Shown piece after piece: positions 9,001 through 12,000 of a stretch of DNA of 22,142 nt. Made by a program: the position numbers. Source of the stretch: a virus. Within the stretch, counting starts at the first letter, position 1, and each line of letters starts with the position of its first letter. The stretch is taken from the UHGV virus genome UHGV-0075672; one strand, written 5' to 3'.

Positions 9001-12000
9001 CGGACTTGTCTATGTGACCGCTTTTCCAAATCGCTCCATCATGGGACGATATCTTGGTGAAATCGCATGGGAAACAGAGGTATGGGTGGCTGATGCACCT
9101 TCTCATCTTATTCACTTCAACGGAGTGCGATTTCTTGGCCCCTACTCTACTGAATGAGTACAGGACCAGATAAATAGCCCGGCCCATGCGCCGGGTTTTT
9201 CTTTGCATATCCCCTCCTGCTATCTGTCCCCTTCAAAAATAAATCACTTTAAAAATCAGTTAAGTAATATTTTCTTGCCCACAATAACCACCAACGGTAT
9301 TTACACAAAAATCACCGCAAGTTATATTTATTTCAAGCCAGAAACATCGCGCCCTTACACAGGGCTACATAAATCAGTCGTACGGCGCGACTTAACCCGC
9401 CGCAAAATGCTCTTTAACAATCTGGAGCTTTACAGCGTCAATGACCTGTTTAGACCCCTACACGTAAACGTGCTGTATCATCGGGTGCGATCCGGTCGAT
9501 GAGAGAGTATCCCCGCGCGAGAGCGAGAACGGCGTGAGAACGGGCAACACTGGCAGGAAGTTGGCGCTGACCAATACAGGGAATGTTTTGGGGTGCTGAG
9601 AGTGCCACCAAAGCGTTGCGTGAAATAGCGATGCCGTCCCAACCCTGTAGCAAAAGTAATGATTGGATACCATAAGACCAATCACAATCATTCTACGATT
9701 ACCTATGCCGCACAAAGTTATTTTTTCAACACAATGTTCAAGTTTTCAACTGACTTCTTTATACTACCGCGTAGGTAGTGCTATCAAATAGACTATGTAA
9801 GCACTTCATGAAGGATGTCGGTCGAACTGAACGGGAAACTTAATGATGCGAAAAATACTCAGGACAACTCTTATCGCTACAATTTTGTTTTCACCAATAG
9901 TACAGGCGGAGTGGTATACAGTAACAGACGACGATTTGTTCTCTGATGGTCACACGGCGCTGATGGTAGGAAAAAAAACATCAAATCCTGAAGAGATTGA
10001 TAATAACATGATTGCTCTTAATTGTACGCCAAGATCCCTAACATTCTCATTAGTCGAAAAGGACATAGAAGAAGAAACATCGGCCCCAATTTATTCATTC
10101 CCAATAGATATGGCAATAAAAATTGACAAAAATAGTATAATAAGGCTCAACGCAACACTTTCAAGAAGAAACTCAATGCTAACACAAGCTATCACTGAAC
10201 GTACTGATACTGAAATGAAGAAAATTAAAATTATACTCAGGCAACTCAGAGATGCTAAACATAGAGTGAGGGTCGGGATTCGACGCCAAGACATCACACG
10301 AGAAGATGCCATGACATATTCTTTCAGCTTTAATGTATTAGGCTCCACTGGTGCTGTTAATAAATTTATCACTGCATGCGGAATAAAGCTGTAAACATGT
10401 TTCTGCCAAAGCAACCTTGACAAATCCACATCGACGGGGATATATTCCACCTCATGGTGCTGAACACACCTTGCAAAGCGGAGACCGCACCCGTCAGTCA
10501 TGCGGCTTTTTTATGTCCATTTTTCAGATATGGTCGGGTAGCGCGTATACCGAAAAACAGCCGAAAGGTTAAGGATACGGGCCGACTTTGCACGGTGTTC
10601 AAGTACCTGGCCGCCCTGCTGAACACAGGGCTATCTGAACAAATGCAAAGGACATAAAATATGAACTCTCAACTCATCCCCGTATTCAACGGCACTATCG
10701 ACAACGAAACTACCCTGTTCTGTAATGCCCGTGATTTACACGCGTTTCTCGAAGTCGGAAAAGACTTTTCCACGTGGATACGAATCCGCATCTCCGAGTA
10801 TGAATTTACAGAAAACCAAGATTTTATTTTGCTCCCCAAAACGGGGGAGCAAAGAAAAGGTAGAGGCGGTCACAACCGCAAGGACTACCACCTCACTCTC
10901 GATACAGCCAAAGAGCTTGCGATGGTTGAACGTAACGAAAAAGGCCGCCAGATACGCCGATACTTCATCGAGTGCGAAAAGAAACTTCGCCAGAGCCTTT
11001 TACCTGCACCAATGAACATCAACTACCCTCTCTCGTGGTTCTCAGATAACCATCCCTACGCCACGATGAACTATGTTGATCGCAAGGTTATCAGCCTTGA
11101 TGCTTCCGTGCTCTTCGATATGCCAAGCCCAACTATGCGCATCCTCAACGAGCTACACAGCAAAGGCTATAACGTTGACGCCGCTGTCGCCGAATTTAAC
11201 GCCTTCAAGCATCTGACGGAAGAAATGCGCCGTAAATTGCTGGATATTTCCCGCACATCGGAAAAGTCTTCCCGCTTTGGTTTCAACGTTAATCTTTAAT
11301 TAACCCCATCCCCGACCACATATCGGGGATTAAATTAAATATCTGGATTAATTAACCGGAGGATTTGTCATGCTCAAACCTCACTACGGAACCGCATTAG
11401 TTTCTCGCGAGGACGTTAAACCCGGCACAGCAATTCTTTACAACGGGCGTTATTACATGGCGTCAGCGAACGTTAATAATGCACTTTACGCACATTCACT
11501 GATTGAAAAAATTCGCATTATCTCAGATGCAATAGAAGTTTACCTGAACAATAAAGGCCAACCGTTAATCTCACCAGCCTGAAAGGAAATATCATGCTCA
11601 ATCAAAAAATAAATATCAATGTAAAAAGCGTCGTAACTCCAGCAGGAACGATAATGGGAGAAGTTTTTATGGATGATAAAATCATCGCCTATTTTGTCGT
11701 CCTGTCTGATGAGGCTATTTCTGTTATTGATACGGAAGGCAATGTTATGTTTATCGCAGAACATCCAGAAGACATCGCATTACAGGCCGCTGCATATTTC
11801 TTCGCTAAGGAGCAGGAGGAAGAATGTAACTGCCCTGTATGTCAGCTTTCCCGACAAATTAATTTAATGCATTAACCGGAATCAGGAGTTCCGCCATGAA
11901 CGCATACCTCACCTGCGACCGCATAGAGGAGCGTCGCTGGATTAATCAGCAAATTCAGGATGAAAAGGATAAATGGATTGATGATCGGGCGCAGGAGCTT

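Follow-up and report, generated by a model that had tools for sequence, protein, structure and literature searches.

The DNA analysed here, a 22,142-nucleotide stretch of the virus genome UHGV-0075672 (hereafter the window), contains two genes, orfA and orfB, that encode a nearly identical C-terminal module of ~93 amino acids (aa) behind different N-terminal domains. The two genes are probably paralogous, RNA-gated antirepressor cassettes of the Bro network, in which the core of the module has been homogenised by recombination and the cassettes can be exchanged. No DNA alignment is possible between the 5' halves of orfA and orfB, and the alignment is gap-free from 11018 and 20296, respectively, through the stop codons, with 80.5% identity over 282 bp. 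Within the module, a 131-bp core (Table 1) contains four differences (at 11164, 11188, 11191 and 11209), which are synonymous, and the longest stretch without a mismatch spans 60 bp (11104–11163). This identity is far beyond chance, since random 131-mers drawn from the window averaged 25% identity and never exceeded 43.5%. In a repeat search of 9700–21000, the module was the sole long direct repeat, with a spacing of 9,278 bp between its copies.

The divergence between orfA and orfB is distributed very unevenly along the module. Nei-Gojobori estimates of synonymous (dS) and non-synonymous (dN) divergence are 0.94 and 0.15 for the first 28 codons and 0.17 and 0.024 for the 45 codons of the core, and the last 20 codons retain 52% DNA identity, with saturated synonymous sites and a dN of 0.51. 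A preliminary description of this DNA had noted that saturation of synonymous sites would argue against recent exchange; saturation is indeed found in the tail, and nearly so in the 5' flank, but not in the core. The same description had reported the two genes with their near-identical module, and its coordinates and content were correct, as was its assignment of AntA-like and ORF6N-like N-termini. OrfA matches Pfam AntA (PF08346) over residues 22–92 with 94.2 bits (cut-off 27) and OrfB matches ORF6N (PF10543) over residues 23–108 with 68.4 bits (cut-off 27.8), both above the gathering score. A Bro-N gene lying between the two, which had been described as unrelated, also matched Pfam, and its protein showed no relation to the shared module when the two were compared with hhalign (probability 1.5%). 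The start of orfB at 19900 is preceded by GGAGG 7 nt upstream of the ATG and is the start annotated by RefSeq in the prophage of SCU-104 (L001). Homologous sequence continues past both stop codons (~11310–11345 and 20585–20620), where a common CCCCGAC...TCGGGG hairpin is followed by ATATCTGGA. The hairpin after orfA (~11310–11328) is a diverged homologue of the terminator-like hairpin after orfB, and the ancient duplicated unit therefore reached beyond the coding sequence.

The variation of the module was analysed in 61 viral-contig loci and two RefSeq prophages, which together provided 68 module copies with 40 distinct DNA sequences. In these related prophages, AntA, ORF6N and Rha domains are each joined to A-type and B-type module parts (the types of orfA at locus 1 and orfB at locus 2). 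Mosaic structure is evident within the module, whose four blocks each have two or three haplotypes in many combinations, and linked synonymous variant blocks recur at both loci. Differentiation between the loci was calculated by block for the 16 genomes that carry both. Module positions 1–36 have an Fst-like value of 0.38 with no fixed differences and two shared polymorphisms, and positions 37–94 a value of 0.88 with eight fixed differences and one shared polymorphism. In the core (positions 95–216) the value is 0.19, with zero fixed differences and nine shared polymorphisms, and in the tail (positions 217–279) it is 0.94, with 26 fixed differences and none shared. All four gametes were found in 29 of the 45 core site pairs, and core divergence between loci (6.1–6.7 differences) is similar to the diversity found within each locus (5.2–5.5). 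The core thus combines shared polymorphism and an absence of fixed differences with differentiated flanks, as in an interlocus conversion tract; this pattern is characteristic of recombination or conversion restricted to the core, with flanks that stay locus-specific.

Each tail allele is tied to the sequence that lies downstream of it. Throughout the 61 viral loci, the A tail always precedes the kil/gam/recT side, whatever the N-terminal domain, and the B tail is followed by a hypothetical gene and an MT-A70 methylase or by another cassette in a tandem array, in which case the promoter of the next cassette lies ~12 nt past the B-tail stop codon. Such arrays, with two antirepressor cassettes in tandem at locus 1, were observed in L005, L006, L008, L009, L031 and L036–L040, and in L064 (2915–4618); the first gene of these arrays has a B-type tail. 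At locus 2 of L002 there are two adjacent ORF6N genes, only one of which carries the module.

One recent cassette replacement, which could be dated relative to the adjacent DNA, was mapped in this lineage. The SCU-104 prophage aligns to the window through 9595 and resumes at 11012; in the intervening segment it carries isrK, C4 and a Rha N-terminal domain instead of a 183-aa open reading frame (ORF), the leader and AntA. Between the window and SCU-104 there are 16 differences in 11012–11209 and only 13 in 11211–22142 (99.9% identity over 10.9 kb), so the right crossover is placed at the core's 3' end or, failing that, no more than 280 bp beyond it (11209–11492). AntA cassettes are also present at locus 2 of intact O26/O145/O103 prophages, where the homology begins exactly at the promoter (10417), and cassettes therefore move between the two loci. 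The domain shuffling or gene conversion that had been proposed for the two genes is supported by these data, as the module stands behind AntA, ORF6N and Rha and its core has shared polymorphisms, no fixed differences and four gametes. The N-terminus of the 183-aa ORF (9843–10394, plus strand) resembles a signal peptide (MMRKILRTTLIATILFSPIVQA...), and Pfam gave no match to the protein; the ORF lies within the segment replaced relative to SCU-104, yet outside the mobile cassette, which begins at 10417.

No model in Pfam or NCBIfam matched the module. Among PHROGs, it forms the C-terminal part of phrog_1760 (ORF6N type) and phrog_995 and also occurs in a family of 77-aa fragments, phrog_17980, and the window module also matches phrog_450 (E ~7e-4) and phrog_15539. 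The family is narrow: an exhaustive HMMER search of 1.84 billion representative proteins returned 22 clusters only, with ORF6N, Rha, KilA-N, Bro-N, P22_AR_N or AntA at their N-termini, and word-indexed protein searches with the module recovered only fragments (11 and 24 proteins). When a profile built from 15 module sequences (A3) was searched against solved structures with hmmsearch, the single match below E = 0.1 was 5d50 chain E (E = 1e-4), which is Ant, an 86-aa antirepressor from Salmonella phage SPC32H, solved as a complex with the phage's repressor Rep. In hhalign, Ant and the module profile aligned over 48 columns that correspond to the conserved core (probability 93.4%, E = 2.4e-7). 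Ant itself belongs to phrog_450 and phrog_15539 and also matches phrog_1760 (E = 1.3e-7). In distant homologues the core is the most conserved segment (SP..R.L..L...GY.V.A...E..AL.H). We conclude from these profile comparisons that the core of the module, over ~48 residues only, is remotely homologous to SPC32H-type Ant, and the module is accordingly predicted to be a repressor-binding effector.

A Foldseek search of the PDB gave no match, and no distant members were found in two scans of species-representative genomes or in two scans of viral contigs. The sole candidate for a free-standing module that could be an intermediate between Ant and the fused forms, P0025 from Providencia, was rejected as the 3' piece of a frameshifted P22_AR_N gene. 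That gene (L067 3308–4300, a Providencia rettgeri contig) is of the P22_AR_N type, carries a distant module copy and is split by the frameshift; its 5' end contains a sar-like antisense RNA match of 37.7 bits (below the gathering score of 43), a divergent HTH gene lies upstream, and the arrangement resembles P22 immI.

Both cassettes begin with strong promoter-like sequences. When 9500–21200 was scored for sigma-70-type sites (maximum 12), the two best sites, tied at 11/12, were 10417–10446 and 19623–19652, and the matches of many related loci to the window start at 19623. In cassette B, the promoter-like site is followed by an isrK-family small RNA (sRNA), RF01394, which matched with 73.6 bits (gathering score 50), has a terminator-like site at 19715–19731 and folds with z -2.0 against shuffles. 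Next comes a C4/CI-type antisense RNA structure, RF01695, with 70.6 bits (gathering score 45), which folds far better than shuffled sequences (z -4.2). The position held by C4 in cassette B is occupied in cassette A by an sRNA-Xcc1 structure, a full-length model match in cmscan with 65.9 bits (gathering score 53). The Rha gene of SCU-104, in the position of orfA, also has isrK (64.8 bits) and C4 (44.5 bits, a match cut off by the end of the searched stretch) upstream. Predicted duplexes between the sRNA and the leader were stronger than those of 60 shuffles each in both cassettes (z -2.4 for cassette A and z -2.6 for cassette B). The C4-type leader also explains certain annotations: Pfam 'Phage_ASH' matches and RefSeq 'ash family protein' names correspond to in-frame translation of this leader (MVGCMGPTSVGLVPLIAS...), as seen at L001 5499–5640, upstream of the real Rha start, and in proteins P0006, P0013 and P0015. 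Since the ASH matches fall on translated C4-type leader, the 257-aa 'Rha family' annotation in L001 probably starts ~46 codons too early.

These features suggest a common organisation, in which each cassette would consist of its own promoter, a short leader RNA, a C4/CI-type RNA, an interchangeable N-terminal domain and the ~93-aa C-terminal module. The N-terminal domain would be an exchangeable part of DNA-binding type (AntA or ORF6N here, Rha in close relatives), and together with the RNA leader it may form the variable portion responsible for targeting and control. The module, with its central ~48 residues homologous to SPC32H Ant, would be the repressor-binding effector. The DNA of the core would provide a stretch of homology common to both loci and to many phages, with crossovers and conversion tracts falling inside it; such exchange would keep the core nearly identical between loci while the flanking codons and tails stay locus-specific. 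By this route whole cassettes, including promoter, RNAs and N-terminal domain, could move between loci and between phages, as the population-level evidence suggests.

Several observations weigh against this reading. The window proteins are not obviously needed for prophage induction, because the prophage's own repressor is a self-cleaving protein with HTH_3 and Peptidase_S24 domains, and no similarity between it and SPC32H Rep was found; a Rep-like repressor in this prophage was rejected as the target of the module on this ground. Unlike SPC32H Ant, the module proteins are fused to N-terminal domains. LexA boxes were absent near 10417 and 19623, and their count in the window is at chance level, so control of the cassettes by LexA was discarded. 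With a self-cleaving CI, no similarity to Rep and no LexA boxes, the setting therefore differs from that of SPC32H Ant. The short leader RNA of cassette A is a putative transcript and weakly supported: it was assigned from its position and a T-run at ~10506–10511, its fold is weak (z +0.72 against shuffles), it had no Rfam match, and neither C4 nor isrK was detected upstream of orfA at E <= 1. Conservation of the core protein, the most conserved part of the family, accounts for part of the DNA identity. Finally, copies from the same genome were not significantly closer than copies from different genomes (mean 6.1 vs 6.7 differences, permutation p = 0.15, 16 genomes), so intragenomic concerted evolution was not seen, and the exchange is better regarded as population-wide, phage with phage, rather than as concerted evolution in a single genome. 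The word 'recent', which the preliminary description had applied to the exchange, therefore calls for a reservation: exchange is visible in the population, and the window's own pair still differs at four core sites.

The most serious rival, although we regard it as unlikely, is that the proteins are not antirepressors at all. The N-terminal domain would then be the working part, either as a DNA-binding regulator or as a Kil-like toxic protein similar to P4 Eta/Kil, and the module would be a helical domain for oligomerisation or stability. It is very unlikely that purifying selection alone, perhaps as constraint at the codon level, has preserved the core after an ancient duplication with no exchange between the loci. 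Such selection agrees with the conservation of the core in distant homologues and with its dN of 0.024, and the diverged hairpins downstream of both genes are as expected of an old duplication. However, protein constraint does not explain the low dS of the core (0.17) compared with that of the 5' flank (0.94), and it leaves unexplained the nine shared polymorphisms and zero fixed differences of the core next to eight and 26 fixed differences in the flanks. The linked synonymous variant blocks at both loci are shared haplotypes beyond what selection alone would produce, and the crossover mapped to 11209–11492 also counts against it.

A further explanation, which appears extremely unlikely, is that the core contains a nucleotide-level element (an RNA target, an internal promoter or an antisense transcript) that constrains its synonymous sites. 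These sites are unusually conserved, and a weak promoter-like site is present on the minus strand at 20539–20512 (9/12). However, the energies of predicted duplexes between the cassette RNAs and the core equal those of shuffles (z -0.2 to +0.6), in contrast to the sRNA:leader duplexes described above, and the core as a target of the cassette RNAs was ruled out on these grounds. Moreover, ~10 core synonymous sites vary in the population, and no Rfam match was found in the core.

The direct repeats had also been proposed as a substrate for RecA- or RecT-mediated deletion of the intervening 9.3 kb. Active deletion of this kind, with deletion derivatives as a regular product, is quite unlikely. 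The repeats themselves are suitable (131 bp at 97% identity, including the 60-bp perfect run), RecT, an exonuclease and GamL are encoded between them, and the repeat length exceeds the minimal homology for RecA and Red-type recombination. However, when synthetic junction queries were compared with 5,426 complete Escherichia coli genomes, no joined place was found: the best place covered 58% of the Rha-type query and 76% of the AntA-type query, and the 76% places were excluded as deletion products, being intact prophages with recT/exo present and the AntA cassette at locus 2. In the 61 viral loci, too, the upstream context of locus 1 was never joined to the downstream side of locus 2, and hybrids of an A-type 5' part and a B tail exist, but inside tandem arrays only. 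Deletion of the 9.3 kb is thus possible in principle, and the substrate is plausible, but no such outcome occurs among the genomes and loci searched.

SPC32H Ant is said, in work attributed to Kim & Ryu 2013 and Kim et al. 2016, to be LexA-controlled, and it reportedly binds its repressor and removes it from DNA. Ant is small and stands alone, whereas the window modules are fused behind an N-terminal domain of ~120–130 aa and carry ~30 extra N-terminal residues (INYPLSWF...) and a variable tail. The window genes also differ from it in having C4/isrK-type RNAs upstream, no LexA box nearby and a dissimilar repressor, and neither is a small stand-alone protein under LexA control of the SPC32H/Gifsy/186-Tum type.

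The Bro network (Iyer, Koonin & Aravind 2002) comprises domain-swapping regulators of phages and satellites that lie beside C4/isrK immunity RNAs, in satellites within 'Bro zones' (PMC10111431). The domains found with the module (AntA, ORF6N, Rha, KilA-N, Bro-N and P22_AR_N) are all network domains that are freely joined to C-terminal modules, so that here one module stands behind several unrelated N-terminal domains of the network. The C-terminal module is, however, absent from the 10 Pfam models listed for the network, and in the present case swapping is resolved to nucleotide junctions in one module, at two fixed loci of one prophage lineage. In Gifsy-1, the IsrK sRNA unlocks translation of anrP within an IsrK-orf45-AnrP control circuit (PMC4825925). 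The window cassettes resemble this system, P1 immI (c4-icd-ant) and P4 CI/seqA in having a constitutive-looking promoter, a terminated sRNA and a C4/CI structure upstream of an antirepressor-like gene. They differ in that cassette A matches sRNA-Xcc1 and not C4, with no Rfam match for the sRNA that precedes it; the likeness is one of predicted layout, and a separate leader ORF with translational coupling belongs to the known systems.

According to the report on Fels-1/Gifsy crosstalk (Lemire et al. 2011; PMC3121763), antirepressors bind repressors and act across prophages, and the Fels-1 antirepressor, whose own phage has a repressor of the self-cleaving CI type, is dispensable for induction of that phage. 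The window CI has the same domains (HTH_3 and Peptidase_S24), and this is an analogy of context only. By this analogy, it is a reasonable idea that the window proteins may act on the repressors of other prophages, as in Fels-1/Gifsy. The pattern of exchange resembles both lambdoid mosaicism and paralogue conversion, with ~99.9% identity that switches sharply to unrelated sequence at a domain border and with shared polymorphism confined to the homogenised tract. As lambdoid mosaicism it is not unusual, and represents a clean example on a small scale, the tract matching the predicted functional core of the module.

Among the 5,426 complete E. coli genomes, 230 carry the module (median, two copies per genome), and it is also present in 105 of 50,697 phage records, almost all of them from phages that convert their host to Shiga toxin (Stx) production. 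Among the carriers are the phage lineage of the O104:H4 outbreak and Stx2a phages of O157. Annotation of the proteins is inconsistent ('antitermination', 'ash', 'Rha', 'ORF6N' or 'hypothetical'). Domain swapping in the Bro network and its association with C4/IsrK RNAs have already been described; current concepts are unchanged, and as genome biology the case is ordinary mosaicism, well resolved. Beyond the literature that we read are the homology between a module for which Pfam and NCBIfam have no model and an antirepressor of known structure, the confinement of inter-locus exchange to the DNA encoding the Ant-homologous core, and the locus-specific tails. This is a clean, quantified case of a conserved protein core that also serves as the joint at which cassettes recombine and are exchanged. 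The link to Ant suggests a testable function for genes that may modulate the induction of toxin phages, and a functional test would be of some medical relevance because the module is common in Stx-converting phages. A broader interpretation, which is doubtful at present, is that the module is a general repressor-inactivating 'warhead' that shares its origin with the small SOS-controlled antirepressors of the SPC32H Ant type and that, in Stx-converting phages and their relatives, was placed behind swappable DNA-binding N-terminal domains and RNA switches in a cross-prophage network. If this were true, each prophage would hold two to five copies that differ in address and in gating, cross-prophage induction could influence the induction of Shiga-toxin phages, and the synonymous homogeneity of the core would keep the cassettes exchangeable between loci and phages.

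Table 1. Coordinates of the two cassettes and of other features in the window
Feature	Position	Strand	Remarks
orfA	10661..11299	+	212 aa
orfA N-terminal part, AntA domain and linker	10661..11017	+	Pfam AntA
Module copy A (locus-1 allele, 'A tail')	11018..11299	+	core 11104–11234
orfB	19900..20577	+	225 aa; in-frame ATG at 19870 would give 235 aa
orfB N-terminal part, ORF6N domain and linker	19900..20295	+	Pfam ORF6N
Module copy B (locus-2 allele, 'B tail')	20296..20577	+	core 20382–20512
Terminator-like hairpin after orfB	20585..20605	+	best terminator-like site of the region
Segment replaced relative to SCU-104 prophage	9596..11209	+	183-aa ORF, RNA leader, AntA N-terminal domain, most of core
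Promoter-like site, cassette A	10417..10446	+	TTGACA-18-TATATT; left edge of mobile AntA cassette; putative function
Short leader transcript, cassette A (putative)	10447..10515	+	weak hairpin and U-run; seqA/IsrK position
sRNA-Xcc1-family leader RNA	10532..10620	+	cassette A
Promoter-like site, cassette B	19623..19652	+	TTGACA-18-TATATT; left edge of cassette homology
isrK-family sRNA with intrinsic terminator	19659..19736	+	cassette B
C4/CI-type antisense RNA structure	19762..19846	+	orfB leader
CI repressor	5930..6643		HTH_3 and Peptidase_S24; self-cleaving CI type
Third antirepressor-like gene, Bro-N	17730..18512	+	Pfam Bro-N, residues 26–109, 59 bits
RelE toxin	19184..19618	-	three-gene cluster
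HTH_3 protein	18871..19191	-	8-nt overlap with RelE toxin gene
Second HTH_3 protein, 'HigA-like'	18555..18860	-	three-gene cluster

The window covers the early-left arm of an E. coli prophage that is lambdoid and resembles Stx phages; in relatives, the integration site adjoins tRNA-Arg. The genes between the module copies were annotated by homology to the RefSeq-annotated SCU-104 prophage. They comprise a cell-division inhibitor, GamL, RecT, a lambda-type exonuclease and several hypothetical genes, followed by YfdQ, DUF551/DUF4752, the Bro-N gene and, on the opposite strand, a RelE/HTH/HigA cluster. This cluster (18555–19618, minus strand) contains three genes and is not a simple toxin-antitoxin pair. 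At the left end of the window (396–570, minus strand), a full-length sok antisense RNA was detected (Rfam RF01794, 118 bits vs a gathering score of 59), which implies a hok/sok-type toxin-antitoxin locus there. The interval from the CI repressor to the first antirepressor cassette contains an Eco57I-type methylase-domain protein (6738..8207, plus strand), followed by a complete BsuBI/PstI-family restriction endonuclease (8204..9157, plus strand). In the near-identical SCU-104 prophage the endonuclease is reduced to a 3' remnant (L001 4476–4781), which marks the restriction-modification unit as a variable insert of the prophage arm.

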